A DNA stretch of 64,000 nt from Monosiga brevicollis MX1 (GCF_000002865.3 NW_001865091.1:25332-89331); one strand, 5' to 3'; shown: positions 1,098-62,900, counted from the stretch's first letter. Notes: generated by a model from the letters alone, not told the origin. Numbers and translations are program-made.

Positions 1098-2393
1098 GTT
1101 GCGGCAGTGCAGGTCGATGCGGCAGCTCTGACCATTGGCGTTGTAGCCAGACTTTTCCACCCAGACATGGGAGAGGGTGGCGTACCTGAGCAGGCGGCCC
1201 ATCTCGTCGCGAAGGGCATTGTGACGCTTGATGGGACGACAGGTCAGCAGGTGCTCGCGGGTCAGTCGCGGCTGAGGTGTCTTGCTGCTGCAGACTTGTC
1301 CGTCGGCTTGACGTTGATGAGTTCATGGAGGCCAAAACCCATCATGGACACGACCGCAATGGCAAAGGTCGTGTCACTCAATCGACGTAACCTGTCTCGA
1401 CCCCGCATGGTCAAGACAGTGCTGACGCCCCACTCGCATGAGGCCAGATATGCCTGCTGCAGGTCCAGCGCGCACTTGGCCATCAGGTCGTCAAGTACCG
1501 CCTTGGAGCGGAGGGCAATGATCTCAGCTGGTCGCTGGGTGGCCGCGTCCTTGACCGTGGCCATCTGGAAGCCAGCTCGCTGTACGTGAACCTCAAAGTC
1601 GGCAGCCCTCGATGCATCCTCCAAGAGTCGATCGAAGACCCGAGGGTAGCGAGTGGCCAGCTTGGCCATGTTGCAGACATAAGCCACCGGACCGCGCTCA
1701 ACCAAGTCGTGCAGGCCAACGCCCCCGGTGTTGGCCCGCGTGAAGATGCGAGCCTCCAGGAGCTGTTCCAGCGTAACGTCATGACCTTCAGCTCCAGCTG
1801 GTGCAGACAGGTTTACCTTGGCAAAAAAGGCTTTGACAAAGGTGTCCTTGCAAGCACGGTTCAAGAGCTCGGACAGGCCCGACGTCAGACTCGGGGGCAG
1901 CGTGTAGAGGTGATTGATGAGGCTAGGCACATACTGCATGGCCGTGAGGAGGGCCTGAAGCGAGACACCGGTCGTCAGCATGTCATTGAGCTTGCCAGCA
2001 ATGTGCTTCGCCTTGTCGTTCAGCTGCTTCTTCATCCACTCGTGACGGCCAATCAGTGTTCCCAAGACCGTCATGCCCGTGTTGGCCGTCTCACGCACGG
2101 CATCTGGCAAGACAGACTTGATAGCAGCGATGGAAGCGGGATGGTGGCGAGGCATGTAGAAGCGGCTCTTTCTGGGCTGCAGATGGAGGCCAGCAGACTC
2201 TGCACGAGCCTTGACAATCTCCACGTCGGCTGCCACGTCCTCGGCGGGACCCATCAGTACAATGTCATCGAGCTACTTGATGACCTTGCAGCGATAGTCA
2301 GTGGTGGCGTCGAGGAGACCGAGGACCTCACAGGAGTACAGGGCAAAGAAGAAGGGCGATAGTTCGTTGCCCTGCACAATGCCTTGGCCAACT
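1098..2393 (-). pseudogene. Degenerate CRE-clade non-LTR retrotransposon fragment (RT C-half, CCHC zinc finger, start of restriction-like endonuclease)
   Basis: RT motifs GIVQGNELSPFFF and K*LDD, where the Tyr codon of YLDD is TAG at 2273-2275, followed by LGTLIG and GGVGL. After a frameshift at ~1293 it reads CSSKTPQPRLTREHLLTC-RPIKRHN...VEK...RID (CCHC + RHN + RxD of RLE). Truncated at both ends. Confidence 0.85.
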
Positions 2394-3819: not shown

Positions 3820-6800
3820 TCAGTCCCGTGAGGGCCAAGGTCGCAAGGCGTGGCACGATGCGGTCACACTGCGTGTTCTGAATCCGTGCTGATGGAACAC
3901 GCATGTGCGATTGCTCTCAAGGGTACAGCCATCACAATGTCCGGTGGGATAAGGTAGAAGAATGGTGAACAATTTGCTTTTGGCTTGAGCGTTAACGGTC
4001 AAGTTGAAATCAAATGATCCAACGGTGGCCTCGATGATCAGTGCACAGCTGACATCACAGCCCAGCTGCGAGGAATGATAGTCTATTTGCCCACCGTCTG
4101 CAAAAGTTGCTATGGAGGTCACAGCATTGTCGTGGAGTCGAGTGTAAATCGCACTGCGCTCAGACAAATTGAACTTCAGCTCGCGCATGAGGGTATTGAG
4201 GGTATCATCCGCTCGCTTCAAAGGCACGGCAGGCAGCATCAGGTAAGCCGCAGCATTGGGCAGCGGCTGAGCCAGAGTCCACTTGACATAAAAACGCTCA
4301 ACGGTTTGAGTCCGATTTGAGTCACCAATAGAGATCCAGTTGCCCGAGGACGTGCCCCTGAATATATCCAGGGAGCCAGAGGCAGACGAATTGATGGCAA
4401 AAATTGTATTGTCATGATGAATCCAGGCAACGCTTTCAGCCGGCAAAGTGATAAGTTGATGCGACATGATGCTGATGCGCTTGCCGTTTCGCAGAGCCAC
4501 GGTCACGGATCCTGCAGCTCGGCAATCTGCAAGTGTAAAGATGACTGGCATGCTGACAGGCCCAGAGATTTGTTGTGCGGTAGCCACTAACACGTCTGGA
4601 AACATGGCCCAGCTGCGTACGCATTTTAGGGGGCGAGGTTTCGAGAATTGTGTCATAAAGGTGGCACCAAGTTTGCCGTTGCTGACTCCACCAACATCTG
4701 AGGTCAACGACCTCATGTAGGTCGATTTGCACGTGGGTTTGTTGGGAAGCTATGCATGTGAGGCGAGCGGGATGATGAGTAAAATCAATACTTTTGTTCT
4801 GATAGAGGAGGGGAGGGGGGCGTACGGATCGCGCACATACCTGCTCAAGCAGGGCTCCAGGAAGCTGCTGCCAATCCCAGACTGGAAAGATGTTGTCATA
4901 TTCATGACCCGTGTAGTAGAGAGCTACCGTGCCGCTCGCAGTGAGCTGACTTTGCTTGCCCTCATTGTTGATGCACCGCGCATTTGTCGATAGGGATGAG
5001 AACATGTGTATGCTGTATTGATAGCCCGGGCCACGCATGATGGCGTAGTCACTGTCAAAGAAGTAGCGGTGTCCGAGAAGGGTTGTTCCGGAGTCATTGC
5101 GCGCCAGGCGAAGAGCGAAATTCAGAAACTCGTCGCGACGAGTTGAGTTGAGGGCAGCAAGATGGTCGACATTGAAATCCACACGGTGCACGCCAGGCGG
5201 GCGGGCGATGATGCGTCCAGTGACAGCAAAATCCCAGACTTCGTCTGAGCCGACGGACATCCAGGCTTGGCCATCGAGGACAAGTCTTGCAAAGTTGTGC
5301 AAGTGCTTTGGGGATATGTAGAAGCTGGTGTCACGTGCCAAATGCACAATGTTAAGGACGAAATTCGTGTAGTTGGCGCCATAGCTACCAGTGAGGTGTT
5401 GACCTCGATGTTGACTGAAAGAGCCATCATGATTGATGCCATCGTGCTTCGAGGATATCATAGATGCGCTGGCATAGACAGTGTCCAAGGCGCGAGAAAC
5501 TTCGGAAGGTTGGCCTTCAAAAGCAGAGCGTAAGACATCGACATACGCCTGCCAAACCTGCAGGTTGCGCCAGGGCAGCGAAAAAGCGACATGAGTTTGA
5601 ACCCTTTCTTGCAGATGATACTGGAAAATGCGGCGCAAGCGGTGCAAGAGCTTGGGTTGGTGCGAGGGCCTTGGGCTTACCAGGTTTGCACCAGTCAGGC
5701 TCGACCACCTGGCGCGATTTAAAGTGGGAATGGCCTTGTTGTAGATGGAACGAGGGATGGCTTCGGGTCCGATGAGGACAAAGGTGGCAGCGAGGGCTTG
5801 GGGAACGGCAATATCGTTCCACCACCTAAGCAGCAGTAAGGTTTGCCGAAAAGGGAGGAGAGAGAGAGATAGTTTGAGAGTTTGAGAGAGAGAGTTTGAG
5901 AGAGAGAGATAGTTTGAGAGTTTGAGAGAGAGGGAGAAACAGAAGGAGGAGGAGAAGGAGGAGGAGGAGGAATGGCGACAAGGAACCAGAGGGTTGCAAC
6001 AAAGTTAGGGATCGCACGGGACCAGGGGGAGAGATGTGGCAGAACTTTAGTAGACTGCGGTCGGACAGACAAGGCAATCGTACCAGTTTTGAGAGGTGAG
6101 GTGATGCGGAGCCAGCGTTCAGTNNNNNNNNNNNNNNNNNNNNNNNNNNNNNNNNNNNNNNNNNNNNNNNNNNNNNNNNNNNNNNNNNNNNNNNNNNNNN
6201 NNNNNNNNNNNNNNNNNNNNNNNNNNNNNNNNNNNNNNNNNNNNNNNNNNNNNNNNNNNNNNNNNNNNNNNNNNNNNNNNNNNNNNNNNNNNNNNNNNNN
6301 NNNNNNNNNNNNNNNNNNNNNNNNNNNNNNNNNNNNNNNNNNNNNNNNNNNNNNNNNNNNNNNNNNNNNNNNNNNNNNNNNNNNNNNNNNNNNNNNNNNN
6401 NNNNNNNNNNNNNNNNNNNNNNNNNNNNNNNNNNNNNNNNNNNNNNNNNNNNNNNNNNNNNNNNNNNNNNNNNNNNNNNNNNNNNNNNNNNNNNNNNNNN
6501 NNNNNNNNNNNNNNNNNNNNNNNNNNNNNNNNNNNNNNNNNNNNNNNNNNNNNNNNNNNNNNNNNNNNNNNNNNNNNNNNNNNNNNNNNNNNNNNNNNNN
6601 NNNNNNNNNNNNNNNNNNNNNNNNNNNNNNNNNNNNNNNNNNNNNNNNNNNNNNNNNNNNNNNNNNNNNNNNNNNNNNNNNNNNNNNNNNNNNNNNNNNN
6701 NNNNNNNNNCTACGAGCTGAGCGTTTGATCGTCATAGTCGAGGTTGTCAAACGTGCAGCTCGGGGTCAGGGATGCCAGGTAGGCGTCGGCGTCAGCCTGA

Positions 6801-9563: not shown

Positions 9564-12500
9564 CTAGGCCTCAAAACCGTAGGCTGACTCATCTTCATCG
9601 TTCAAATTGACGTTGCGAGACTTGGCCGGCCTACAAGAACAGTAAAGCATCAGGCATAGCGGAGAGCATGAGAAGGCAACACCACACACTGCAAAGGCAA
9701 AAAAGAAGAACAAAGAAGAACAACGCAAGTACAAAGCAAGTTCAAAGCAAGAACAACGCAAGAATAAAGCAAGAACAAAGAAAGAGCAAAAAAGAACCAA
9801 GACAAGGGTGGGAGGTTCAACGAAGCGGCGGGGCTTACCGAGCTGGCGGTGGCCCACTGTCAAAGTTGACGACACGGGCTCCAAGGTCGGATGACATCAT
9901 CTCCGAGTCTTCACCAAACGCAGGCTGACTAATGGGCGTCGCATACATGCTCTCCATGGCCGCCATCGGACCAGCGCCATTCTGCTTGTCCAAGTAATCC
10001 AAGATGACGCGGTACACAAAGGCATACTGCTCGGCGGTCTGGACCATACCAGGTCGTTGCGTGCGCAAATGCTTCGTCACTTGATACAGATCCACCTTGT
10101 TCTCCTGCTTCATGCGCTCGAGGCAAATAACAGCAGCACAGTATGCGCCCGTTCGGCCCACGCCAGCGCTGCAGTGCACCACCGTGGGCTTCAGCTGTTG
10201 CAAGATAGCGTGTTCGTTGATGGCCTCGCGGTTGCCGTAGATGCTCTCCTCTTGAGGCACTACAACCTTGCTTCGCGCGTAGTCCTCAACGCGCATCACC
10301 AAGTCAACCAAGTCACGGCCAGAGCCCATTTCGCCCGAGGAAGGCCAGTTTGGAAACTGCCAGTGCTTGACCTCACGTGCTTGATCCGAGACGGGGTTGA
10401 GCAGAGTCAAGGTGCGCTCCACACCAAAGCTCTTGTGCTCCTCCTCAGAGATGGACACCTGCAAATCTCCAACATTGAGGGGGTCACTGCCCAGGGAGGG
10501 CCAGTACTGTTCTGACTTTTGCCGGCCACTCTCCTCAAGGTGAGTCAGCATGACAATGCTGTGAACCTCCTGCTCCCATACCATGCGCCAGAAGTCTGCC
10601 AGCGTGCTCTGCATGGGGCCCTGTGTGGCAATAAACTGCTTGCGTTGACGGAAGCCGTCAATGTAGCTGGCGTTGATGTAATCCGAGCCGACAACACCCG
10701 GCAGGGCCGATAGCTTGACGCGCGAAGCATCGTAAGGCATGATGTTCTGAAAGCGGTTCTTGCTTTTGTTTGCCATCTGCTGAGCAGCGTCAGTACGCGT
10801 GTTAGAGGAGGGCGGGCCCTGACTGAGGCCACGGAACTCCTGGTCCAGCTGAGTGCCGCCGGAGGAGACGGGCTTGCGCAGCTCATCAAAATGTTTGCGC
10901 AGCGTTTCGGGACTCATCTCCGTTACAATGTTGGAAAGACCATCTGCCAATGCCCGGTAGATAAAAATGTACTGTCCTTCAGTCTGAACCATGGTGGTGC
11001 GCTGGCGACGCATCTCGTTGAGACTGCCCATGACATCAACCTTGTTCTCGCTGGCGGCCTTGTCCAAATTGTAATCGATGGCAATGAGCGTACCAGTGCG
11101 GCCCACACCGGCAGAGCAGTGAACCACCATGGGCCCCGCAGCGGCCTGGTTACGCGTCTCCTTGGCCCGGCGGATAGTCGTCAAGATGCCAGCAGTGGAA
11201 TCTGGGACACCGTGATCAGGCCAGGAGATGTAGTGAAATTGGGTAACAACCCGCGACTGCTGGCTCACCTGCACAGTCAGATGGCGAATGACCATGTCTG
11301 GGAATTCCTCCTGCTTGGTCATGAATACGCTCATGTTGGTCGTCAGCGGGAGTTGACCACCCACTTCCTCAGGCCAGTAGCGGTGACATTTGGTGCGGCC
11401 CTTCTCCTCGAGGTTGGTGACCATGACGATAACCGAGACGCGCTGCTCCCAGATCATGCGCCAAAAGTCCATGAGTGTGTGTGGCAGTGGTCCCTGCGCA
11501 GCAATGTACGACTTGGGCTGGTTATAGCCATCAATGTAGTTGGCATTGATGTAGTCGGAATACGGATCGTTGGGAAGCTTGTGCAACGGCACACGCGAGT
11601 GATCGTAAGCCAAAATGTTGGCAAAGCGGTTCTTTTGCCGGTTGCGGTCCATGATGGCGTAATTGCGACCAAACTCAGAGCCCGACTCAATGCACTCGTA
11701 TTCCTCGGAGAACGCAAAGTCCGAGTTGGCGGCCATCTGCTGAATCACCGTGTTGAGGTCCGACACCGAGATCTCATGACGCTCAACAGGGGGCATGTGC
11801 GGCACGCCGCTGGCAGCGCCACCAGCGACACTGCTAGCGCCCCGGGGTGGCGCAATAACTGCCGCAGAAGCCCCGCCCTTGGGAGGCAAGCTGGGCTGTA
11901 GGGACGAGGACGTCGAGGTCGGGCGGACCGGCACGAGACCCATCGACGGGCCGGAGCGTGGCGCCGGCACTGGCGAGTGAAAGTTGTTTACATCCACAGC
12001 GGTAGAGTTGGTCATCGTCGAAGCTGTGTCGTTGCGCCAGAAATCTTCATCAGGCGCAGCGGCTTTGTTCTGGCGACGCCGCCACATGACAAAGACAAGA
12101 ACGGCCACAATGAGAACGATGATGACAATGACAACTCCAACGATGATGCCAGTATTGTCAGCGGGGGCAGCCGCCGTCGAGGCCAAGGCCGTGGTCGGGT
12201 TGAGGCTGGCGGCCTGGCACAGTTCATCGTTGCCATTTTGCGTGCAGGTGAGGAGACGGAAGGTGTAGGTGGCACCTGCTTTGAGAGGACCATTGACATA
12301 ACCATCACCGTCAGCGTCGACCTTCTCTCGCTCGGCACCAATGACAAAAGAGCTTCGAGACAGATCCCCCAATCCCTCCGACTCGGTAAAGGTCTGGCTG
12401 TACGCAATGTAAGCCATCGGGCTGCTGGCAGCCTGGGCTTCGGACCACGTCCCGAAATCACAGCTGCTAGAGGCGCAGTCCAACGAGGCGACGGCATGGG

Positions 12501-15500
12501 TGCTACTGCCTTGTGGCTCGACCACGAGCGAGAGCCGACGGATGGGACCCGAGTACGTGGAGGGTGCGACCCAGCTGACAGCAAAGGCTGATTGTGAACT
12601 ATATCCATCAGGCAGAACGGCACTCGTGACCGCGGGCGGTGCTTCAGGCCGCGCTGAAAGCGTGCGGCGCTCTGCCACGCGCCCTGGACCACGCAAGATC
12701 ACACCGGTGCCCTGCGTGTTCACCGTAACGAGTGACATGTTCATGGTATACAGTGTGTAAGGCCGCAAGTCAGTAAAGGTCCGGCTGTAGTCATCGTTTT
12801 GACCCCGCTCATGACCACTGCGGTCGTTCGAAAAAGGCGAGTCTTGATCCAGCGTGGTCGAGTACTCAAGCTGCGTCAAGGCACCGTTTGAATTGTAGTA
12901 TTGGCGCTCCGTGCGTTCGACAACTAGAGCCAGGTAATCGATTGGCCCATTACGCTCATGCTTAAGAGGCAACACGTAATTCAGCGTCATCTGACTGCTA
13001 GTTACGCCTGTAAAGTCAAGCTGTGTCGGCGCCGCCTCGGGGGCGGCTGACTCGGTGCGTTGGTGGCCCAAGCGATAGAGGGGCGCGGCGCCGACCTCGT
13101 TGTTGGCCGTCACCTCGACGTCGTAGGTGACGTAGGGGTCCAACTGTGTATACACCGAGTCGTAGTCATCGCTGCCCAGTTCATCGGTCGCGGTGATGGG
13201 CGTGGTCACGATCTTCTTGTTTGGGGTGTCGTACTGCGAGTCGGAGCTAGCGGAGATGACCACCGTATAGTTGGTCATGATTCCGTTGCGAAGAAAGATG
13301 TCCAAAGACTGGAAGCGCAACCGGAAGGTGCGCGCCGTGACATCGAAAAACTCAAGCTCGTCGACGATACCGGTCGGAACGGTTGGAGCCAAGAGTTGGC
13401 TTCGGCTATCGTACATGGTGCCAAAGCCCACTGACGTGGCCGCCTCAACCTTGACTGCGTACAGAAAAGCCGGTTGCAAGTGAGGAAATTCAACAGCAAA
13501 ATCGCGCTCCGGGGTGAAGGGGGCTGTAACGGCAATATTGGATACAGTGGTCTCGATGGTATGGTCGCCAGGGGCTACTGCTGGCGAGGATTGGCGCTCG
13601 AGCGTGACTCGAAACGACTCAATGATGCCATTACGTCGAGTGGCGATGGGGAGCGACCACGAGACATTGATGCGGGCATCGCCGTCGCCATCGCCTGTCA
13701 ATTCAGTGATTGCTAAATTGCGCACTGCGGCATCAGGAGTATAGGGATCCGTTTGAAAGACGACAGCAAATTCGGGGCCGTTCAAACCATTGCCGTTGGA
13801 GGCGCGGACCGTGATTCGATACTCCATGTAAGGCTGCAATGAGGACAGGCGAACTCTGGTGACAGCACCGTCAATGGTGCCAGTTGCGGCCAACTCATCG
13901 GGTGCGGTCCGCAACCCGCCGTCCTGGATGCGGTACGCAAAGTCGCTGTTTGCGCTGTTCGCCTGATAAGTAATGAGGTACCTGAGCTCGGGACCATTCT
14001 GATCTTCTGATCGCGGTGGTGTGATCGAAAACATCAAGGACTGATCGCTGGAATCGCTGAGGTCTACCGCACGCACCGCCGTGGCAGGGGCCGCGCGTGC
14101 CGTGGTCCAGTCATAAAAGGCAGTGCTGATACCAGCCCCCACTGCCGTGCGAGGTCGAATTGACACATTGTACTTGACGTACTCCTCTAGCGAGTCAAGG
14201 CGCAGCGTGAAGAGATTGCTAGCAGCGCCGGAGTTGTTGACACTGAACTGACAAAGACCACCGCAGGCATCTGTGGCGTCCGTGTCCACGCGGCGTGGGT
14301 CATAGTCGCTGGCGCGCGACAAGGTAACCAAAAAGCCTACAATCATGCCCGAGCGGTCGGCTTCAACAGGCAAGGACCATCGAATGACGCTAAATGTTGC
14401 GCCATCGCCACCAGACGCCAGATTGATGGCAGTTACGGGGCCCTGAGGAACATCCTCTGAAGTGCGGTAGATAAGATCATCACTGGCTGGAGAGAGCAGG
14501 CTGGCATCAGAGGCGGGATGGGCATAAAGGCGAACGACGTAATCGAGGCCCGGGTGAAGGCCAGTGAGCGTTGTTTGGGTGCCTACGAGGTTTGTTTGCA
14601 CCATGGGGGCCGAAAAGTCGTCACTGATTCCCAAGCTGGCAGCGGTGACCGACGTGGAGTCCGCGTACGTGGTCGTGCTCTTGGCCACGTACTCCAGGCG
14701 GTAGCGCAGATTGTTCGTGTTGTGAGCCGCTGCAGGGGGCGCCGCCCAGCTCACAGTCAGACTATTGAAAGTGGCTGAGGCTGTCTGATCCAGCACGGGA
14801 GCGGCATCGGGGGCAGCCTCGAGCGTCTCAACATTTCCCAAGTAAGTGGGCGGACCACGCAGGGCAGCCATGCCCGTGTTCTCCGCATACACGGTCAGGT
14901 TGTAGATGATGTGCTTCTCAAGGCCGGAGAGAACGAAGGGTGATGCACCCATGCGCTCGCGACCGGTGTCCGGAAAGGATGCGTTGGCGCGCACTTGCCC
15001 AGGCACACGGGCAAACTCAACGTAATACTCGGGGGTACCCATGCGATCAACCGGGTTCAACTCACTCCAAACTACATTGATGCTGGTCGAGGAGATGGCT
15101 GTGGCCGTGGCCACCACAGGGGCCACCGGATTGTCCTGCTGGGTTGTATAGCGAGCCGTATCGGAGGCCAGGCCATCGCGCGAGCCCGAGCGTGTGCTGT
15201 TGACACGCAACAAAACACGGAAGGCGTAATCCGTGGCCGGCACTAAATCGTCGACTTCAACGACACCGGCGGTAACCTCGGCGACCGTCACCTGGCGCTC
15301 TTGCGCTGGCACTTGTCCAAACTCGTTGCAGCCCGCCACCTGCTTGTCAGTTGGCACGTGGGGTGCAGAGCAGTCAAAGATCCACTGCAGCGTGTAATGC
15401 AGGATTGGCAGGGGCTCCGTTTGCGGTGCCGTGATGGTGACGGCAGCCGTGTAGCCCACGTCCACCTGGGCACTAGTCACGGCCAAGCTAGGCGCACGCA

Positions 15501-18500
15501 TGGCACGGCACTGCATCGTCGTCTGCTCCAGCGTCTCATCCATGATAGCGCGAAACCCGTCGATGAGGGAGATGCCATCGTAGCTGAAGATTTGAACGTC
15601 ACTGCTGTTGAACACCGCGTCATAGAGCTGAGTCGAACCATCCAATTCACCCGTGTGCAGATATCCAGCCGAGTTGTCGGCAGCAATTTGAAGCACGGCC
15701 AGACCAACAGGCGAAGAGGCATCTTGGGCAAGGGTGGAGTTCACCTGAAGAGCAAAATTGGTGTCAGCTGGGAGCTCGACCAGTTTGAGGACCCCGTCAT
15801 TGGACGAGTATCGGCTCTGCGTCGTAAAAGTCTTTGCAAAGGCTGTGTTGTCCGCAAGGTTGACAAACACTAGGAACATCTGTGTGGTATCACCGGCGGA
15901 TTCCCCGGACGCAAGGCCTGCATTGGTTGCAGCCACAGATACGCCCAGCTGGCAGTCTGACTCAGGATCCCGGACGGGTAGGACTTCGAAGAAGGGAATA
16001 TGACGCAATTGACCACCAATGACGTCCAGCATTACAAGCACGTCGTTCAGGGACACGCTCTGGCTCAGATCCACGTCCATGGCGGCATTCGATGCGGGTG
16101 CCTGGCCCAGGGAGCCAGTCAAGTATTGAAGCAGCAGGAGGGCATCACCAACAGTAAGGCGACCATCATCATTGAAGTCGAGGGAAGCATCAGCGTCACC
16201 AACTGCGGCTCGCCGACGCCGCCCACTGCCACCGCCAATGTGAATCGAAGTGCCAGAGGTACCCCAGTGATAGGATGTTGAGACGGACCATCGGCGATCA
16301 CGCTCCCAACCGGGGGCGGGAGTGGAAGTCGAAGCCTCAGCCTTCACGCCGGCGTCCCAAGAAAAATCGTTGCCGTGTGAACCCAGATGATACGTTGTGT
16401 GAACGGCCCAGCGGCGTCGGCGAGCTTGCTCAGCAAGAATGTCAAACTGAAAACTGGACCCCGGGGAGCGAACATCGCTCAGCAAGACCACACCAGTCGC
16501 ACCCGTGAGCTCCACAAGTTCAACATCAAATCGCACCGTGGTTGACGCCGTGCTCGCGACGAGGAACGTGGCCGTACCAAAATCCACGTTTTGACCTGGT
16601 GCCAACGGTTGGGCAAAGAGGCAGGAAATGGTAATACGCTTATCGGTATCGCGATTGGCTCGAATCAAACCCAAAACACCGCGGGAGACGCGGACGTGCT
16701 GCAGCGTGAGGGCATCCCGTGGGTCAAGCGTGATGCGCAGCTGGATGGCACCCACGGCCACATCCGAGGTCAGGCGCAACGGCATCTCAAAGGTGCTTCC
16801 AGCTGTTTGGTTGGAAAAACGCGTGAGATCGACACCCGAAGCGTCCTTGTCCAGCTGCACTGTCACATTGATTTGCCTTTGCAGCTCCTCGTTGACCATA
16901 ATCGTCAGCTGCACCGGTTCCGCAGACGAGGCCAGGACGTCCAATCGACCAAACTCATCAATGGCCAGGATATTTGCGTCGGATGAGGCAAACGTGATGC
17001 CGAGCGCAGTGGGAATGAACGTGCCCGTGAGGGTCTCGTGCAGCAGGTGCGCTGGAATCGTCGTGCCATCGCTCAGCTCAATGTCAAAAGACAACAGCAA
17101 CTGACTGTCGGAGTCGTCAATGACCATTGAGCTACCACTGGTAGTGACGTTCATGGCTGCCAAGTTGTACACGGCAAAATTGTCAATATTTTGCACAGTA
17201 CGACTGCTGCTGTCGGATCGCAGCAGTTCGGCAAAGTCATCACCAGTTTCAAGCCGCACGAGCAAATTCTTTGAGGAGCTGGCGAGATGAGCAGCCTGAA
17301 TGAAGAGTGTCGTGTCATCGTAAACGCCAAACTCGATGGTGGCACCGTCGTACTCAAGAGTGTCGACAAGGCTGGTTGGCACGTAAATGTGATCGTCTCT
17401 GGTTCGGATCTGCACAAAGGCCACTCCTGGAACGGCTGCGATGCGATCGGTGACAGTGCCGAGGTCGGGATAACTGAACGTGAGAATTTCAAAGACTGGC
17501 AGTATTAATTCAATGTTAACCCGCAGCTCCAACTCCGAACCCTCGGACGTTTCAATGATAATGGAGGCCTTGTTGCTTGTCGGATCGTCCTCTACTTCAA
17601 TGTATACGGCACCTTCGCCCTCGATGAGCGAAAAGTTGTTGAGATAAGTAGAGGCACCCAGCTCGACGTTACTGCTAGAGATGGGCACGCGCGAGCCGTC
17701 ACTGTACACGATTTCCAAATGAATCACGGCCGAGTATGGCTGATCAAGACGCTCGCCGTATTGTCGGCCATACAGGGAGGCGGGTGCATCCAAGGCCACC
17801 AGCTCCTTCGGCACTGGGCGGGAATAGTTGAGGTCAAAGGAGGCGCTGATTGTTTCAGGCGTGCAATCAGCCCGCTGTGCAAGTTCAAGACTGCGAGTTT
17901 CCTCCGTATCTTCCGTCAGCACGATTTCATCCAAGCTCGTTGTGAACATATCATCAGACGGAGTAAGCGTCCAGCGGTCCGAGGTCATGGGGTCGAACAA
18001 ACTGAGAAGAGCAAAAGGAAAGGCTCGCCCAGCAGTGAGTCCCACAACGAAGGAAGATTGACCCCGGGCAGTAGCTGCCTGCGCGCCCGAACCAGCCACC
18101 ACGTGAGAGAACATTGCACCCTCAACACGACCCAAGTAGGCACGGGCGCCCAAGTAGATGGCCGCTGAGCTAGCATCCCGCACGGTGACTGTTGCGCCCG
18201 CCATCTCGAGATCCACACTGATGGAGACGGTCCCAGCCGAGACACCCACAAAGGCACGTTGTGTGGCCTCGTACGCCAGGTGGGGACCATAGCCCGAGAA
18301 AGCGGTGGGGGCAACCAGGCTCGTCACGTCCACTTCTGTGACGGCGTTGGTGCCATCGGTAATGTCCGCCCAGACTCGTGGCCGGGTCGTGGAGTAGATA
18401 GGCCGGCACGCCTCCGTATCATCGGGATCGGCCGTCTCGCCAATCGGTGAAACCACAGACTGACTCATTTCAAGACGGGCATTGACAGCACGCCAAACAG

Positions 18501-21500
18501 TCAATGAATAGTTGCCCGTCATACCAAGGTGAGTAGCTTGAAGCTGCACTTCGCCCGCAAAGTCGCTGGCGAATGTGAGGGTGCTGCAACCATCCAGCTC
18601 CTCCTCCGCCGAAACAGGAACGACCGCACAGCTCAAGCTGGACACGGTCACTGGGCGACCATCTGAGGCGAACACTTGTACGTCTAGCGCCACAGTGTTC
18701 TGCTCAAGAATATTGAGGTGGTGGCGCAGCCCGTTGGCAGGGCGGATAAAGACAGCTGCCGCGTTGGCCTCCAACACGTGAAGGACTGCGCTGGCATTTG
18801 ATTGCTTGCGCACATACACCACTTGGGGTACTACCGAAGCCTGGGTGGCGAGTCGCACCTCATCGGCCACAATCTCGATGGTCACTGTTGCCTCCTCGCT
18901 CACAGGTCGAAAGGCGATATCAAAAAGATCCAAATCCTCGGGCTGATTTGCATCGGCATTCGTGGTGAAAGCCGTCACCACCAGCGTGTGGGCATTGCCT
19001 TCTTGAGATGAGGACTGGATGGCTACGAACCAGTCGTCACTGGCAACAGCAAAGCTGCTTTCGGTAAACTGAGCTCCATGCGCAACAACGGTAAATGCCA
19101 AGCTCATGACGGGTTGGCGACGGTGGTAGGCCACGCGCATGAAGCCAGCGTCGGTCACATTGTCGCTCAAAAAGACCGCAACGGTGTTGGGGGTAACAAA
19201 CGCTGGCATGGCGATGGAGGTGGCCAAGGCACCAGTAAGCGTGTTGGCAGTCCAGCTCTGGTCGGCGGCAGTCGAGACCGTGAAGGCTGCCTCGGCAGCG
19301 CCAAACCATGAGCCAGGCACGTGAGCAGAGCCCGTACAGATACCCAGGGCCGAAACGTTTGTCATGCCACAAGTCAGGGTCAAGGGTGAGAATGAGGCAT
19401 TCTCGTGGGTGACGTGCAACAGAACCTCGTAGGGCGCAACCCATGGCTCTCCGGCTGGGCCAAGCGCTTGAATGGCAACGTGTAGGCGCGGGCTGATCGG
19501 TGAAATGGTGCGAGTTAGGAGCCGCAAATCCAAGGACGTGGCAGCACTGGGCTCCAGGGTCACGGGTGCCGTGTTATGCACTGCACCGTACTGCATCGAC
19601 ACAGTACCGGCAGTGGCGTAGACGAATTTGACATTAGCAGTCATGTTGCTGCTGAGCACACCGGCATCCAGGGATGTGGGACCAAAAAGTGCAAAGTCGG
19701 CAGACATTTCCACAGATACATTGTAAAGCGGGTCGGGGAGGGGCGCACAGATGGTATCAATGGAGCCAGCGCATGCTGCCTGCTGCCAGTAGCCCGCACC
19801 GCAGACGCCACAGGGCGTGCAAAGGCCATCACACTGCTCGGGACGGTAAAAGCCATTGGTGCTTGTGCAGGCCTGGCAATCGAGATGAATGACAAAGGGA
19901 TCGCTGTCCGCGACGTAAACGGCACCCGTGTACAGGGTACGAGCGCCTGTTTCGATGGGAGCTTGCAACTTGGAAAGCACATCCTCGGCCACGGTTTGTG
20001 AGCAGCTGTGGCAAATCACACGAAGGGAGGCCTGCACGTTACCAGCCACCTGTTCGTGAGAGATGGAAGCCAGGTCATCGTCAGAGAAAGCACGGGAGAT
20101 GCTGGCATCGGCCGTCAGAGCGGCCGCAAGCGCCTCACGCAGAACGCGACGCTGAACTTCATATGTAAAAGTGGTCGTTGAGGGCAGCCGAAGGCCAAAG
20201 TAAATAAAGATATTGCCGGACCCCGGATCGTCAGAGCGACTCGGTTCGTCTTCAATGAGGCGCAAGAAGGCCCGGGAGTAGGCAGGACCATTGGTCGAAG
20301 ACAGGTCATCGTAAAGGTCACCACGGCCAGTGCTATTAACCACATCACGAACGGCGGCAAGGACATCTTGGTATTCCGCATCAATCGCGTCAATGTGAAA
20401 GTCGATAACGGTGCTGCTATTCTGGGAGACGCAAACGCGGTCAGAGGTGGCGGTGGCCTCCACAAACTCCTCGTAAAAGCGAGGATCACACTCGGCCAAG
20501 AGCTCGCATTGACGGTCGGTCACATTGGAAGGAGCGAGTACTTCGTACTCATTGTCCGTGCAGTTGGTCCAGGGCGTGCACGCGCTAGCCGAGCTGCTGA
20601 AGGAGAAGGTAGCATCAGGACACGCCGAGCATTCGCGCTGCGACGTGATGGTCGGTGGTGCCGTCACGTAGGAGCCGGGCGCACAGTCGACAACGGCGGC
20701 ACACGTGGACTGTCCAGCATTGGCCTGAAAGTTGACGCCAGCCGTGCACGCTTGACAAGAGGTCGCCTCATCGTCGAGGCTCACAGATCCTGGCGGGCAA
20801 GAAGCACAGGATGGCACGTTGGTCGAATCACTATAGGTACCCGCCGTGCATGCAGCGCACTGGCGATCACTCGAGGAGGTGGGGTCTTGTGAGACTTCCT
20901 GGCCGGGATCGCAGTTGCGAACTGGAGCACACGAGGCATTGCCCCCCGAGGCAAAAAAGTCGGCTGCACAGGCTGTGCAAACGCGATCCGAGGTGGCGTT
21001 GGGTGCAGCAGTTTGTCCGAAACCAGCTGGGCAGCTGCTCCAAGCACGACATTCCACGGCTCCCGAGGCATTTTGAAAAAAACCAGTTGCGCAGGGCACG
21101 CAGACATCATCGGTAGTCAAGCCTTGCCGAGTGCCTGGTGGGCAGAGTTCGCAAGTGCCTGTAGAGTTGGACGTTCCGTTCTTGCAGGCACAGCTGCGAT
21201 CCGAAGTGCTGGTGGCTGCGACAACTTCTGTCTGCGTATCTGGGTTGCAAACCGTCAGATTGGCACACACGCGATCCGAAGTATTGGTCGCAGGAACCTC
21301 AGCGAACTGTTGTGCGGTGCAGATGGTCAGATTGACGCAGGACGAGGTCTGCGTGTCCAAGTACTGGCTGCCGGTGGCGCAATTGGGCAGGCCGGTGGTG
21401 GTTGCAGCAGCAGTGGTTGTGGGTGCCAACGTCGTATCGGCCGCCGTGGCGGTCGTGGTGGCAGTGGTTGTGGTGGCGGCGGTTGAGCCGGCAGCCGTGG

Positions 21501-53958: not shown

Positions 53959-56900
53959 ATGATCCATTCAAATAGGGTCGTGCCCTTGCTCATGGGCCTG
54001 TGCCTGGTCTTGTCTCAACTGGCCGACGTCACGCAAGGTATCCTTGCTCACCCCCCTCGCCTGTTTTCCCTCTTTGCCCCTTGTAATTTTTTTTTTTTTA
54101 GATTTTTTTTAATTGTTTATGTGTGTGTGTGTGGTTATATGATGCCAAGTCTTACTCCAAATCCCCTTGTACAGGTGCATGTGAGGTCGGAGGCTGCAAT
54201 CATGGTCAGTGCAACACCACAAGCAACGCTTGTGAGTGCGAGCCCGGCTTTTTTGGCCCTGCGTGTGCCTTTGAACAATGCAACGAGATGCGGGCGTTTC
54301 GCCCCGGTCTGTTGGTCAACATGTACGACGACTACAGCTTCAGGTCCATGGACGGCGGGCAAACGGTCTGGCCCTATATCAGCTTTGATTGGAACTACGG
54401 CGCCCCGTATCCTCTTCCCTCGGACCACTTCTCCCTCCTGGCCCAAGGGGTGCTACGTCCCACCCAAACGGGCTACTACAAATTTCAATGCCGCTACCGT
54501 CAAGGCGCCTGCCGTATCTTTGTGGATCGCAATCAGACGACCACCGAGCAGGCCATGTACCTTTCTGCCGGCCAAGCGTATCGCCTCAAGCTGGAGTTTC
54601 AGCACTCCACAAGCCACACCTATTGGTACTTTGATTGGTCTGGCCCCCTCGCCGACCCAGGGGCCGAGCCCAGCTTTGCCCCTGTGCCCGCCGACCACCT
54701 GGAACACGAGGCTGTGTGCACCGCCGGCTGCTCTGCTCGTGGCTGCTGCGAAGTCTCCGATCAGTGCTTTTGCCCCGAAGGTTTTACCGGCAGCGACTGT
54801 AGCGTGCCCATTGACACCCCAAACTGCGGCACGGACCATCCACAGGGGCCCTACTTGCCGGGCGGCGTCAACATTGCCCTCTATAGCGACTATTATTGGG
54901 GGTCTGGGCAACCACCCGTGACTCAGCTCACCCAACGCTCGCCTTACTTTAGCGCTGGTTACGGCACGCCGTCCTCTCTCATCAGCAACCGTGATTACTG
55001 GTCTCTCACCTTTTACGGCAAGCTGCGCGTCAACGTCACGGGGTGGTACACCTTTCAGACCACCATGGGCAGTGGATATGGTGTTGCGCTCATCGGACCC
55101 CATGCCGTTATCATGCCCCTCATGGGCAGCACCAGCCGCGACATCTTCCTCATCGGTGGCCGCCTCTATGATCTGCACGCCAGCTACAAACACAGCGTCA
55201 ACTCGGGCCACTTTCGTCTGCGTTGGGCACCTCCAGGTCAAGAACTGGTCACCATCCCCACTTCAGAACTTTTCACTCCGACCCAGGGCAGCTATTGCCA
55301 AATCGGTTTTCTTTGCAACGAAACCGGCTTCAACAACAACGGCGCCTGCCTATGCGATCCCCTTCATGAAGGCGAACACTGTGAGCATTATCGCTGCCGC
55401 TCTGACGAATGTCGCTACCACGACAATTGCTACGATGAGGCCTATGGCAGTGACGACGCCGAATGCAATGGCCAGGGGCGGTGTGTCGCTGGTGTTTGCG
55501 AGTGCGAGGATGGCTTTACGGATCACAGCCAGTGCACCCGCGAAGGCTGTACCGATGCGTCAGACTGCTCCAACCACGGGGCGTGTGGGTTGGATGGTAT
55601 TTGTCAATGTGAGACCGGGTACATGGGCGAGTTTTGCGAGCTGACCGTCTGCGGAAATGATCGCGCCACGCTCGCCGGTTTGATTGCCACCTACTACGAC
55701 GGCAGCGCCTTTAACGAAAGGCGCGCCATGGTGGCGGTTCCCACCGTTTATCTCGACATTGACTATGGCGCCCCACATCCCGGACTGCCAAGCGACTACT
55801 TTAGCGTGGTCTATGCGGGGTTTGTGCGGCCCAAGGAAACGGGCTGGTATCGCTTCCGACTGCGCCGTGAGAATAGCGATGCGTACATTTATATGAATCA
55901 GACCTCCTACGACGACAATGCCATGCTCCTGACGCGCGCCGAACAGCTGCGCATCAAACTTGAATGGCGCCACTACACATCAGACACATCGCTGTATTTC
56001 GAGTGGATGGGGCCGTTTCCCAATTCGACGCTGGCGCAGGCAGCACCGTCGAGCGAGTTTACGATTGTTCCGGAACACGTGCTGCTGCACAAGGCGGTGT
56101 GTCCCGGGGGATGCTCGGGCCGTGGCTGCTGTGTGGCAGCGGACACCTGCTCGTGTGATCCGGGCTTTACCGGGCCGCGGTGCGAAGTGGCTTTTTCCGA
56201 GTGTGGAGACGATGCCCCTGAAGGCAACCTAGAGTCGGGTGGTCTGCGTGCGCGGTTCTACGATGAGCGCCTTGAGGACGCTTTGACCAGCACTGCTGCC
56301 TGGGTTGATAGCGGAGTCCGCACGGTCATTAGCTCTCACTGGGGTTATGGTGCGCCGGCCTCGGGCATCGACAACGACTACTGGACAATCGTTTATACGG
56401 GCTACCTGCTCCCGATCCAGTCAGGCTGGCACCGAATTCGTGCAAGAACCGACTCGATGGACGCTCGGCTGTACCTGGGTGGGGTGCGGCTCTTCACGTG
56501 GACGACGGCCTGGACTCAGAGTGTCTACCTCGTGGCGGGCCGTCTTTACAACATCCGCTTTGATGCACGTGACGGCACGTCAGACGCTGGCGTGTGGCTT
56601 TATTGGGAAGGCCCGGGCTTTATGGAGCAAATTATTCCAAAGACCAATCTCTTTCACTATGAAACTGGCTTTGCTTGCTCCTGCGGGGTCGACGCTTGTA
56701 CGACCTACGAGCGCGGTGTCTGTGCCAACGGCCTGTGCGTGTGCCACGGCCAGTTTGAGGGCGAGCACTGTGAGCACTATCGCTGCCGTGCCGACGAGTG
56801 CCGCTACCATGACAACTGCTACGATGAAGCCTATGGCAGTGACGATGCCGAGTGCAACGGTCAAGGCCGCTGCATGGCCGGTCTTTGTGAATGCCCATCG

Positions 56901-59900
56901 GGTCTCACCAACGAAAGCCAGTGTACTCGCCAAGGCTGTGTCGACGAGGCTGACTGCTCCTACCATGGAGTCTGTGGCGAAGATGGCACGTGTCAGTGCG
57001 ATGCCGAGTACATGGGCGAATTTTGTGAGCTGACCGTTTGCGGGGATGATCGTGCCACGCTTGCCGGTCTAATTGCCACTTACTACGACGGCAGCGCTTT
57101 CAACGAAAGGCGCGCCATGGTGGCTGTCCCATCGGTGTACACCGATGTGGCCTACGGGGAACCGCATCCCGGTTTGCCGAGCGACTACTTTAGCGTGGTC
57201 TATGCGGGGTTTGTGCGGCCCAAGGAAACGGGCTGGTATCGCTTCCGACTGCGGTGGGAGCGCAGTGATGTCTACTTTTATCTCAACCGAACGCAGTACG
57301 ACGACTCGAGCAGTGCGCTGTTGTATGAGGCCGGGGACATGATCCGTATGAAGATTGAATGGCGCCACTACACATCAGACACATCGCTGTATTTTGAGTG
57401 GATGGGGCCGTTTGCCAATTCGACGCTGGCGCAGGCAGCGCCGTCGAGCGAGTTTACGGCAGTTCCGGAACACGTGCTGCTGCACGAGGCGGTGTGTCCC
57501 GGGGGTTGCTCGGGCCGCGGCTGCTGTGTGGCAGCGGACACCTGCTCGTGTGATCCGGGCTATGGTGGTCCAAACTGTGAGGTGGATTTGTCGACTTGCG
57601 GACCAGACGCACCCAGAGGGGCATTGCAATCTGGCGGCGTCAAGGTGCGCTACTTTAATGGCGTGCAAGAAGACGCCATGACCGCCAATGTGACTTGGGC
57701 TGACGGCGGAGTCAAGAGTCGCATCAACCTCGCATGGGGTTATGGTTCGCCGGCCTCGGGCATCAGCAGTGACCACTGGACTGCTGTCTTTAGTGGCTGG
57801 CTTCTTTCTGACCAAACGGGCTGGCATCGGTTCCGTGTGGCGACCGACTCGATGGACGCCCGGCTGTACCTGGGTGGGGTGCGGCTCTTCACGTGGACGA
57901 CGGCTTGGTCTCAGAGTGTCTACCTCGTGGCGGGTCGCCTTTACGACATGCGCTTTGATGCACGTGATGGCACGTCTGATGCCTCAGTGTGGCTTTACTG
58001 GCAAGGCCCCGGCTTTATGGAGCATTTGGTGCCTTCGGCTAATCTTTACCATTACGAAGATGGCTTTATGTGTGGTTGTGGCAGCAGTGGGTGCAGCGGC
58101 TCGGGTCGAGGCGTGTGTGCAGATGCCATGTGCGTGTGCCACGGCCAATTTGAGGGCACGTCTTGTGAGCACTATCGCTGCCGTGCCGATGAGTGCCGCT
58201 ACCATGATAACTGCTACGATGAAGCGTACGGCAGTGACAATGCTGAGTGCAATGGTCAAGGCCGCTGCGTGGCCGGTGTTTGTGAATGCAACAGTGGTTT
58301 TGCCGATGAAAGCCGGTGCACGCGAGAGGGTTGTGTAGACACCGTCGATTGCTCCCAGCGAGGCACGTGTAATGCCGCGGGCCAGTGCGAGTGCGACACC
58401 GGCTACATGGGGGAAGCGTGCGAGCTGAGCGTATGTGGCAATGAGCGTGCCATGCTGCCAGGGATCTTGACTACCTACTACGCTGGCTCCGCGTTTGGAG
58501 AGCGGCGCATCTCCATTGCCGAGCCAAACATATATCGTAATTTGGACGGCAATATTCCATTCCCCGGCCTGCCGAGCGATTATTTTAGCGCCACGTTCGA
58601 GGGGTTTGTGCGACCCAAGGTGACGGGGTGGTATCGCTTTCGATTGGGGTGGGAACGCGGCTCGGGTCGCGTCTTCTTAAACCGGACACAATACACTGAC
58701 TCTGCTCATTCGATGCTCTTGACTCGGGGCGAGCTGCTTCGTCTCAAGGTGGAATGGCAGCATGATCGTTATGACACTGCTGTATATTTTGAGTGGATGG
58801 GCCCTTTTGTCAACTCCTCGCTGGCTGAAAGCACCGACTCGACAGCCTTTGAAGCCGTTCCATCGTTTGCACTGTTACACGAAGCCGTGTGCACCGGTGG
58901 TTGTTCGGACCATGGCTGCTGTGTGGCACCCAACACGTGCTCGTGCGATGAAGGCTACACGGGGCCACATTGTGAGGTAGAGGTCTCGACGTGCGCCTCG
59001 GAACCCCGCGGCTCGCTCGCGTCGGGCTTGCAGTTGCGCTTTTTCAACGGCCACTACACAGATGCCATGGTGGATGGTGTTCCAGTCGTAACGCAGCGGG
59101 CCAGCAATATTCACGTCGATTATGGATATGGCTCCCCTGCCAGTGGGGTGCAATCCGATTATTTCATCGCCGTCTGGTCAGGGTACATTCTCCCGCCGCA
59201 AACGGGTTGGTACACCTTCCGAGTTTGGACCGACCACATGTCGGCTCGTCTGTTTGTGGCCAATCAACTTTTGGTAGACTGGGAAGACGCCTGGTCAACG
59301 CAGATCTATCTGCACGCCGACCGCTATTATGAGCTACGCTACGACGCTCGCGAGGGCGTTTATGACGCGGCAGCACGTCTTTACTGGACGGGACCAGGCT
59401 TTATGGAGCACATTGTGCCTTCTTCAGTTTTATTTTCACTGCCGGACGACGTCAGTTGCCCATGCCCGGACAATTGCACTCGACACACCCAGGGCTATTG
59501 TTTGGACGGCTTTTGTGCTTGCACCGGTGCCTTTGTGGGTGACAATTGCAACGAAGTGCGCTGCCGCACAGACGAATGTTTGGGGCACGATGACTGTCAT
59601 GATCCTGCTCTGGGAAGCAACAATGCCGAGTGCAGCGGCCTGGGCAGCTGTGTTGACGGCCAGTGCGCCTGCCCTGATTTGGGCCTGCAGGCATCATGCA
59701 CCACAGAATTGTGTCCGGGGGATGGTACCTGCGGCTTGCACGGGACCTGCACCAACGACGGTTGTCTTTGCGAGGCTGGCTTTGATGGCAACGCGTGCCA
59801 ATATCATTCCTGCCCCCGCGAAATGGGCCAACTGCCTGGTTTGCGTGCGCGGTTCTACAACGAAGTAGAGCGTTTGATTGTGGTTGCCTCCACAGTGGTC

Positions 59901-62900
59901 GACTACACAGCCGCCTCCTGGAGCGATAGCCCTTATCCGGGTGTCAACTCAGATTACTTTGCTCTTGAGCTGGAGGGTATGGTCCTGTCCCCAGCTGCGG
60001 GATGGTATCGCGTTCAATGCCCTGAGAGTCGTGTGAGCTGCGACTGGGTGCTTGCCAACTCGTCGGCCAGTGTGGTGCAGCTTGGGCAAGGCTGGCAAAA
60101 CCTGTCCGTCGTGGTCACTCATTCTCGGTATACGGCCACCTTTTCCTTGGAGCTCGCCGGGCCCTTTGCAAATGCCACCTTGGCCGAGTCTGCGGATGCC
60201 GCCGAATACTGGTCATTTGCTGATTGGCAGCTGGGGCATCGTGCCGAGTGCGACCAGTGCGACAATGGCTGTTGCATGGGTGATGGCGTTTGCGTGTGCG
60301 AGCCCGGCTGGGCGGGGGCCACCTGCAACATCTCCCTGCCTCTGTGCAATGGGAGCGATGTCGAGCGGTTGCCAGGAGCAGTCGCTCGCTATTATACGGA
60401 TCGCTCATATGATTCCTTGGTGGCGACCGACTCGGTAAGCAAGCTGGGCCGTGATTTTGGCTACGACGCACCGTATGCTGGCGTGCCCAATGCATATTTT
60501 GCCATTCGCTATGAGGCCTTTTTGGAAGTGCCTCGCAACGGCTGGTACCGTTTTCGTTTCGTTCAAGACCGAATGAATGGTTTATTGCGCGTGGCCAACC
60601 AACTGGTGTTGCCAACCAGTGGCGGATTCAGTGCGAAAATCTACTTGTATGCCTCCGTTCCATCGCCCCTGCTGCTTGAGGTTTACGAGACTTCATCGTA
60701 CGACAGTTACTATGACCTACATGTGCGCGGTGAAAACAACTACGAGGTCGACTTGGATTTGAACAACCTTTTTTACTTGAGTGGTGCATGTGGCTGTCTT
60801 CCTTGCGACCTGGCCACAATCAATGATTACGACCCAGCATTTGACGTCGCTTCCACAGCGGCACTTGTTGTGCGCGAGGGACAATTGGGCCACGTCCGCT
60901 GGCTTGAAGCCACCGATCGGGACAGTGGAGACTCGTTTGGCATCCAATATGAGCTGATCTCTGATCCCAGTGGTTGCTTTTCTCTCGATGCCGTGACCGG
61001 CCGACTGAGCCTGGCGTGCTCAGTTAACAAAAGCACCATGCCGGTTTTTGATTTGGTTGTGGTTGCCTCGGATTCAGGTTCCCCGCCGCGCAATGGTACG
61101 GGAACGCTGACCGTATCGGTCGAATGTGCCGTCGGCTTTGCTGGGTCAAACTGCTCATCGTGCGCTGCCAATTACGGGGGCTCGACGTGCGCACGGTGCG
61201 TGCCTTGTTCGAGTCACGGTCAATGTGGCGAAGGAGGTTTGTGCTATTGCACCGATGCCACCTTCACCGGCGACGCATGCGCGGATTGCATTGACCGCCA
61301 TTATGGTGGATCGTGCCAACCATTGCCCTGGCTAGCGAGTCTGACGCCGACGACGGGCTTGGATTTTGGCGGTACCACCGTCACGTTGACGATTCACAAC
61401 ATGCCATCGAACCGCCCCAACGTATCGTGCGTCTTTGACGGCCTAGCAGTCCGGGCTGTAGTAGTGAACAATGAGACCCTGACCTGTGTGACGCCCCGCC
61501 ACGAACCTGCCACCGTGGCCGTCAGGGTCACATTTGACGGCGGCGCCACCTTTGTGGGACCCAGCTCGGGACAGTCTTACAGCTATGTGGGTAACTGCCC
61601 GCAGACAGACTGTCCTCCAAATCGTGCCTTTTGTGTGTTTGGTGAGTGCTATTGTAAGCTAGAGTTTTTTGGCGACAAATGCTCGCAGCAATATGTGCGC
61701 CCGACGATCAAACCCGTGAGCAGTACCACTGTTTTGCCTGGCGCTGCCTTTGCGCAGCGGCTCGATCTCCAAGCCGGAAATGGGGAGATCACATGGGTTC
61801 TCATGGAGGCGCCGGCCGGTGCTTACTTGCAAGATGGCACCGTTGTGTGGCCCAAGGCAACAAGTGCATCATCTCTACATTCGTTTGTCGTGGAGGCCCG
61901 CAACGCCTATGCTGCGGGTTCCGTCGCATGGGGCGTGGCAGTTCCCTTTGCCTATCAGGCGAAGGTTTTGTCACTTGGAACGCTCGACATTCAGGGCTCA
62001 CCAGCATTAGTACATCTGACAGGCGTGGTCAACAAAAGTCATCCGGACATTACGTTGGACAGCCTGGAGGCGCTTCCGGTTAAAATCTGGTATGTTGATG
62101 GTTCTCACGAAATTCGTGCACCAGCTTCGGGCAAGGTTGTGAATCGAGGCTTACCTTTCACACTCTGTTTCATTTTCATGTCCTCTGTGGCACGCGCGCA
62201 CGCATGGTATCGAATTGCAGGCTTACGCAAACCACATCACACAATCGACGCCGGGCTGCCATGCAAGCCATTATCATGCGTGTAATAACCAATGCCACTG
62301 GTCACTTTTTCAAGCAGCTCAGTATCACGGATCTTGGTCACTTTCAAGTGGTATGTTCGTGTTGTCTCAATGTTTATCGCGATACATCCACACTCCAGCT
62401 GAGGGGCGGCCCAGAGAAACAGACATATCTGTGGGCCTTTTTTTTTTGTTTTTTTTTCCACTGTTATTTCTTTTTTTAAATTTTTTTGGCCTGAAGTTTT
62501 CTTTTGCGACTTTCTTTGTCGGCTTCCCATGTTCACATGTACACATGCCAATCGGAACTAGGGTGTTTCACACGCAGACGCAACGGTCATGGATGACCAA
62601 CGGACCGTGGAGGTGGCGGGTCTAACAGCTTCACCGACCTCTGTTGAGGTGCCGCTGTTGTCTGGAGATAACCAGACTGTCTTCTTAGCCCGTGTTGCCA
62701 ATCCTTCGTCTGTGGACATTGACAACGTGGAGCTGACGCTGGGTGGATTGTATGGCGTGCCGATACCAGATGAAGTTCGCCTGCATGCCTTCCTTGATCG
62801 TACAAACCTGGCTGGTGGCAGCTACACCAATCTGCGCTTATCCGCGAGCGTGTCGGACGAGTTTACCGGCTCCGTGCTGGTGGGCCTGCGGATCACTGAA

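Follow-up and report, generated by a model that had tools for sequence, protein, structure and literature searches.

A predicted protease-cleaved cohesin-dockerin joint in a giant choanoflagellate receptor tyrosine phosphatase

The receptor phosphatase gene and its surroundings

The window, i.e., the entire 64,000-nucleotide stretch of Monosiga brevicollis DNA analyzed here, carries on its minus strand a main frame of 4334 stop-free codons. Inside this frame falls the interval 16222-16410, which the original prediction had singled out for two related short peptides arranged like a prohormone between basic cleavage sites. Pfam profiles recover TNFR-like Cys repeats, FN3 repeats, two PTP domains, and a dockerin below cut-off from the frame. 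Residue numbers throughout are those of the main frame, whose first ~105 residues probably take in intron sequence. Upstream lies a probable first exon that we infer to be spliced to the main frame; its range as given extends to its frame's stop, and a splice donor probably closes the exon short of that point. The features of the encoded protein are:

24204..24719, minus strand: probable first exon, read from the sequence, with an ATG at 24719, a signal-peptide-like hydrophobic stretch, a Thr-rich repeat, and the first Cys repeat
9835..22839, minus strand: main coding frame of a giant type I receptor protein tyrosine phosphatase (frame reading and Pfam), in the order TNFR-like Cys repeats, Thr-rich stretch, Ig-like/TMEM132-like region, cohesin, linker, dockerin, unnamed domain, FN3 repeats, TM, two PTP domains
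21574..21585, minus strand: basic site RRRR at residue 419 with Asp at P1', between the Cys-repeat block and the Thr-rich stretch (motif scan), the fourth such site of the frame
12079..12150, minus strand: transmembrane helix, about residues 3564-3587 (sequence and weak TM-segment Pfam matches)
9895..11643, minus strand: tandem PTP domains (PF00102, E=5e-160, in two stretches; lower boundary approximate)
10945-11643, minus strand: PTP D1 with WPD and HCSAGVGRTG, as read from the motifs

With a single TM helix, tandem PTP domains, and a D1 retaining the catalytic motifs, this is a receptor protein tyrosine phosphatase; D2 keeps HCSAGVGRTG and is missing the Asp of WPD. A protein of the choanoflagellate Barroeca monosierra (P0007) shows the same order of TNFR, dockerin, FN3, and tandem PTP domains, and is 43% identical across the C-terminal 1,300 residues of the window protein. 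Pfam detects neither an Ig-CAM domain in the window protein nor a cadherin repeat in the 4334-residue main frame (the small upstream exons being only partly covered). It likewise returns no TMEM132 domain on the window protein, residues 1427-1510 of which match the TMEM132 Ig region of a relative (P0006). Separately, a cut at the fourth RRRR site (21574-21585, minus strand) could free the outermost Cys repeats.

Several other genes occupy the window. A 2727-codon frame (54102-62285, plus strand) combines PA14 domains, teneurin-like EGF repeats, a cadherin, and a TIG domain, and HMMs of the cohesin-dockerin module find neither a cohesin nor a dockerin in it. An open-ended frame (62562-63998, plus strand) gives a weak sub-cut-off match to a carboxypeptidase-regulatory-like domain, and a 336-codon frame (1262-2272, minus strand) without a Pfam match looks by eye like a fragment of a retroelement reverse-transcriptase protein. 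A gene for a polysaccharide lyase of family 8, spread over at least two frames and probably split by introns, lies at 3820-6004 (minus strand), with chondroitinase AC as its best PDB match (E=1.7e-20); the available text on Salpingoeca rosetta lists two genes of this family as candidate horizontal transfers (10.1101/2020.06.28.176636).

Cohesin, dockerin, and the linker between them

The interval with the two peptides sits between two modules of cellulosome type, in the following setting:

16858..17004, minus strand: last bacterial-Ig-like (BIG) strands before the cohesin, seen as β-strands in the model (Big_2 look-alikes, feature scores 0.90-0.91)
16429..16842, minus strand: cohesin-fold domain, residues 2000-2137 (predicted structure and HMM)
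16012..16185, minus strand: type I-like dockerin with two calcium-loop/helix repeats, about residues 2219-2276 (Pfam, HMM, and alignment)
15490..16002, minus strand: unnamed β-rich domain, following the dockerin in full-length modules (leave-out HMM iE=5.5e-7; alignments)

Residues 2000-2137 are predicted to adopt the cohesin fold, modeled with a pLDDT of about 85-93 across most of the domain. The model superposes on the Clostridium perfringens cohesin 2vo8 with a VIA Z-score of 15.0 (rmsd 2.2, 129 aligned residues) and on 2xdh with Z=13.1. The best 29 VIA rows are all cohesin-containing entries, Foldseek is in agreement, and a leave-out HMM recovers the domain with iE=1.4e-6; the Pfam Cohesin profile itself has no match on the window protein. 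The dockerin scores 20.7 bits against PF00404 (cut-off 22.9; E=4.7e-4) and 5.9e-12 (iE) with a leave-out HMM, and its counterpart in a relative (P0001) clears the Pfam cut-off with 29 bits. The Asp12 of both calcium loops is invariant in 35 of 35 rows, the helices are present in the model, and the best PDB match is the ScaB dockerin 4uyp_B (E=0.021). A PDB search with the alignment A5 returned matches dominated by the cadherin repeats of its full-length rows. Both domains are encoded in one frame, unlike the cellulosome-type partners, which reside on separate polypeptides.

Between them lies the linker. The whole frame contains just four R-x-[KR]-R motifs, at 419, 2140 (RRRR), 2180 (RDRR), and 2207 (RRRR), and three of the four are packed into 71 residues here:

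16411..16422, minus strand: basic site 1, RRRR, three residues past the cohesin, Trp at P1' (motif scan; two Arg invariant in the alignment A1)
16303..16410, minus strand: segment 1, 36 residues, with the repeat core at 16372-16410 followed by an Ala/Ser/Thr/Pro spacer (pLDDT <50)
16291..16302, minus strand: basic site 2, RDRR, Trp at P1' (motif scan)
16222..16290, minus strand: segment 2, 23 residues, with the repeat core at 16252-16290 and a Gly-rich end, Gly preceding site 3
16210..16221, minus strand: basic site 3, RRRR followed by Ala, in a Gly-rich context (motif scan)

The segments start at W2144 (nt 16410) and W2184 (nt 16290), and 7 of their first 13 residues are identical. This agreement arose at the same offsets in 4 of 200,000 shuffles of the linker, at any offset in 24 of 5,000 shuffles, and in 11 of 200,000 random draws from the ectodomain. 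The likeness of the two segments thus exceeds chance, and the layout described by the original prediction, repeated related peptides of 36 and 23 residues bounded by three basic sites, is present in the sequence. At the DNA level the copies agree at 29 of 45 nucleotides, which is consistent with an old tandem duplication of a unit made of a basic site and a peptide. The peptides accordingly look like a lineage-specific duplication, by which site 2 (RDRR) was probably created. Three strict sites are found in no relative, and it is because the duplication added an internal site that the window protein has the look of a two-copy prohormone.

The linker is probably exonic, since a metatranscriptome contig of depth 4 crosses the whole of it without a gap. 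A further contig, from a run guessed to be RNA, covers 15400-17600 with zero differences or gaps and may be this DNA's own source. Relative to the window, the wild contig (a single one, of depth 4) shows two silent changes in the repeat core and two replacements in the spacer. Between the two copies pN is 0.26-0.30 against a pS of 0.61-0.65, a ratio of about 0.4-0.5 that is biased by the repeat having been chosen for its similarity. The closest relative has, after its own first site, the pattern aromatic-x-aromatic-x-Ser-x-Tyr, an anchored resemblance with p=0.006 over 7 residues and 0.10 over 10, for one of 15 segments scored, and none of the other 6 clusters shows it. These thin signs of constraint suggest that the Trp motif might not be wholly neutral, and such constraint is unexplained by a pure throw-away spacer.

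One reading of this constraint gives the Trp peptides a structural or regulatory role in this lineage: poorly cut, they would remain on the cohesin half as β-strand-like tails and tune docking or the rate of cleavage. The alternating W-x-V-x-T-x-Y pattern, the excess of pS over pN, and the closest relative's heptad would all fit such tails, as would furin's dislike of a bulky P1' residue (in the part of PMC3281273 consulted). We nevertheless consider them quite unlikely, given that the resemblance fades at 10 residues and is confined to one cluster, and that the peptides are unstructured in the model, although the alignment is nearly empty there.

That model, a single chain built from 35 aligned modules, has a mean pLDDT of 72 and a pTM of 0.69, whereas AlphaFold on the single sequence alone gave a pLDDT of 35. 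The cohesin-dockerin linker, which takes in the two peptides and almost the whole of the three sites, has a pLDDT below 50, a value partly expected from the sparse alignment at this point, and is predicted to be disordered. By rough arithmetic with simple assumed errors, halves placed together should yield a pTM of 0.69-0.79 and independent halves 0.40-0.48; hence the observed value fits the former and not the latter, and the two halves are predicted to be in a fixed packing. As a global score, pTM is silent on which domains touch and does not identify the interface, and its value here may stem from the bacterial rows with their short linkers, or from solved cohesin-dockerin complexes that AlphaFold has memorized.

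Conservation of the basic sites in related modules

An HMMER search over 1.84 billion representatives gave 6 matches, 4 of them with the whole module, and a second search added 4 more; scans of genomes supplied 27 further near-complete modules from prokaryotic assemblies. After removal of 14 partial matches and of duplicate rows, the comparison of linkers comprised 37 rows, in some of which the linker length includes the last strand of the cohesin. In the clade of the window protein, each of the 9 rows carries 1-3 R-x-[KR]-R sites within a linker of 35-88 residues; the 24 bacterial-type rows, with linkers of 18-24 residues, have none. The remaining four rows, all from one assembly (G001), have linkers of 43-47 residues and no strict site. 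All 8 clusters retain the strict motif, for the most part with a small residue at P1'; only seven clusters were found beyond the window's own, and 5 of these 7 have two or more strict sites. Every animal-type row checked (16 of 16, being 3 cluster representatives and 13 members) has at least one such site, the label animal-type having been inferred from domain content. Across 8 proteins, 14 of 19 R-x-[KR]-R sites lie within 458 linker residues out of 16,122 extracellular ones (2.8%).

Against this background, the possibility that the linker is never cut, with the basic clusters serving as a flexible, charged, or glycan-binding spacer, appears highly improbable. It could draw on the Trp at P1' in two of the three sites and on cleavage being a prediction from motifs, but a mere spacer would not account for strict sites, mostly with a small P1' residue, concentrated in the linkers of all clusters. 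Cleavage of the linker is therefore the part of the predicted prohormone-like processing that stands as likely, as judged from the placement of the motifs; that the products would act like hormones is unlikely.

When the linker is left out of the tree computation, the rows with sites fall on a single branch (99/97), which unites the choanoflagellate-type rows with the cadherin-bearing animal-type ones. End branches reach 2.7 changes per column, so the sites have outlasted the rest of the linker. The phylogeny thus favors one gain of the sites, kept over long branches, rather than many independent gains. As the contrast between presence and absence of sites amounts to one evolutionary change on the tree and not to 33 independent cases, a Fisher test (8 versus 24 rows) was set aside.

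What is shared by the family is the layout of a site, a variable spacer, and another site. The pattern W-x-V-x-T-x-Y-H-x-G occurs in the window row alone among the 37, being absent from all 8 other rows of the clade, Barroeca monosierra included. In alignments of these rows the sites are conserved and the peptides are not, in large part the outcome that the original prediction had named as counting against it. The expectation that the peptide sequence would be better conserved than the spacers across orthologs was therefore not borne out beyond the weak 7-residue resemblance noted above.

This bears directly on whether the receptor doubles as a prohormone that releases two related signaling peptides, the second possibly amidated. 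The repeat beyond chance and the signs of constraint are what such a precursor might show, and the Gly directly before the third site is an amidation pattern, found on segment 2 only and inside a Gly-rich run. Moreover, homologs of neuropeptide precursors with conserved cleavage sites are reported from Salpingoeca rosetta in the available text of PMC9004410, which makes the idea not implausible in principle. However, the motif is missing from the other 8 clade rows, none of which has a Gly directly before its last strict site, and both peptide N-termini would require a cut before Trp. The linker also has no usable Atlas match, which is not proof of absence. We accordingly judge the release of small signaling peptides to be very unlikely. 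Tethered ligands of the PAR kind belong to seven-TM receptors, in which the ligand is unmasked at a new N-terminus; the companion suggestion of such a ligand is at odds with the single TM segment of the window protein and its lack of a GPCR domain.

A scan of metagenome contigs for the motif gave 22 matches, none tied to the module. Their tblastn agreement was essentially confined to the motif (best E=0.002, with one of E=0.13 elsewhere), and the cohesin and dockerin regions had no tblastn match on these contigs; we therefore took the 22 as chance matches. Of 215 pattern matches from a metagenome locus scan with the alignment A2, none was confirmed. Word-based protein searches with the window region and with the alignment A1 found no match, weak negatives in that they missed the known relatives too.

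Several relatives (P0002, P0006, and P0012-P0015) have TMEM132 Pfam domains, that of P0015 being a match to the TMEM132 Ig domain just below cut-off, and in four (P0006, P0012, P0013, and P0014) a second, upstream cohesin-like domain matches PF23039, in all cases below cut-off. In a sample of 401 genomes from a single bacterial phylum (one record is titled Myxococcota), 16 also carry the unit of cohesin, dockerin, and unnamed domain. There it is part of giant proteins with open frames of up to 14,117 residues, sometimes in several copies per protein (L023-L026, L030, and L035-L068). Together with P0015, the sequence of this bacterial unit suggests a bacterial counterpart of the TMEM132 cassette. 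Two of the rows (L023 and L024) are titled 'uncultured Enterobacteriaceae' though sampled with the Myxococcota-titled phylum, and the titles look like placeholders. The four modules of G001 (L027, L028, L033, and L034), nested among the bacterial rows, have independently lengthened linkers with a single Arg or a Lys-Arg. This assembly is titled Bacteroidetes and yielded no histone match and one weak match to the actin family; its modules may be eukaryotic contigs in a bacterial-titled bin.

Proteolysis, docking, and comparison with known systems

We propose, with a probability of roughly 0.6, that the two Trp peptides arose by duplication within a linker which is predicted to be disordered and which a furin-type protease cuts, the two halves staying joined through a calcium-dependent cohesin-dockerin interaction. 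The chain would fold and the dockerin would dock on the cohesin in cis with the linker as a tether, after which a Golgi convertase of the furin type would cut and the loop would be removed, by analogy with insulin's C-peptide. Furin is described in the available part of PMC3281273 as preferring a small P1' residue and flexible flanks; hence site 3, with Ala at P1' and a Gly-rich flank, would be the best candidate for the cut and the two Trp sites poorer ones, which agrees with the caveat in the original prediction that Trp at P1' may be unfavorable for furin. Convertase and carboxypeptidase sequences of choanoflagellates are among those compared in PMC6850559, in the available text of which furin activity is not demonstrated. 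The receptor at the surface would then consist of two chains held by the predicted calcium-dependent clasp, the distal part of more than 2,000 residues detaching under pull or a drop in calcium, so that the phosphatase half would be left with its dockerin unoccupied. As for the peptides, they would either be thrown away or hang from the end of the cohesin.

The conserved sites would also fit a reading in which the distal ectodomain is simply shed, without re-association, and the exposed dockerin binds another cohesin, be it the upstream one of the TMEM132 type, a paralog's, or another cell's. The second cohesin-like domain in relatives (PF23039, below cut-off) would offer such a partner, and bacterial pairs join separate proteins, as given in the consulted part of PMC6030884. 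We regard this as unlikely, since the pTM favors a fixed packing of the adjacent halves and the bacterial-type domains stand only 18-24 residues apart with no site, short linkers that suggest an ancestral cis unit.

On a bolder reading, the bacterial cohesin-dockerin unit might have been turned into a protease-opened snap fastener in the receptor ectodomains of choanoflagellates and early animals, and the joint, once cut, would work as a fuse, set by calcium and force, through which a receptor phosphatase is controlled. Halves could be exchangeable between paralogs or neighboring cells, giving a cellulosome-like modular surface, and the excised Trp peptides may report the cut in this lineage. 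This broader picture we put forward as doubtful speculation.

Receptors that are cut yet kept together include Notch, the adhesion GPCRs, and the SEA-domain mucins. Such cut-but-joined receptors, to which the available text of PMC8711739 adds the LAR phosphatases, play a central part in animal shedding and force sensing; a split receptor built on cohesin and dockerin would, if true, be a new design and a new route to a furin-split receptor phosphatase. Since the joint occurs both in a receptor phosphatase of a choanoflagellate and in cadherins of the animal type, it probably predates animals. In the literature searched at the level of titles and abstracts, the older Nichols 2012 and Peer 2009 aside, we found no description of a cohesin-dockerin joint that is cleaved. 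On their own, the peptides are of minor importance unless shown to be released.

Comparison with other processed proteins sets this arrangement apart. Insulin's C-peptide is a poorly conserved spacer between basic sites that joins two parts assembling in cis, as proposed here; insulin's halves are held by disulfides, whereas those of the window protein would be held by a protein-protein clasp, with one half membrane-bound. Multi-copy neuropeptide and pheromone precursors share with it short related segments between basic sites and one Gly-basic end, but the window protein has only two copies, situated between folded domains of a receptor of more than 4,000 residues and unconserved in relatives. 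Bacterial systems (cellulosomal type I, and the non-cellulosomal cohesins of C. perfringens and Archaeoglobus) have in common with it the cohesin fold and the dockerin with duplicated calcium loops. Their partners are separately made proteins, while here both lie in one chain of a eukaryotic receptor that would become two only by proteolysis. In choanoflagellates and sponges, the coherin, lefftyrin, and hedgling cadherins carry cadherin repeats, of which Pfam detects none in the main frame of the window protein.

These cadherins and the TMEM132 cassette resemble the window protein in combining cohesin and BIG domains in holozoan surface proteins (PMC6030884, as available). The same source, in the text available, counts the bond between cohesin and dockerin as one of the strongest receptor-ligand interactions known (over 120 pN), states that dockerins are not detectable in vertebrates, and leaves open whether holozoan cohesins bind anything; its supplement text, to the extent available, mentions neither 'furin' nor 'dockerin'. 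The dockerin described here is a candidate partner for these cohesins.

Comparable in architecture are the LAR-type phosphatases (PTPRF/PTPRD/PTPRS), which, according to the part of PMC8711739 available, are likewise single-pass proteins with FN3 repeats, tandem PTP domains, and a poly-arginine convertase site in the ectodomain, a penta-arginine stretch cut by furin-like proteases with the subunits remaining non-covalently bound, as is predicted for the window protein. In LAR the cut falls at the ectodomain's C-terminal end, whereas the three sites of the window protein lie about 1,350 residues from the membrane and, unlike that of LAR, separate a cohesin from a dockerin, in a protein devoid of Ig-CAM domains by Pfam. 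The window protein is thus not a member of the LAR-type (R2A) subfamily, and by analogy it would work like the furin-split LAR phosphatases.
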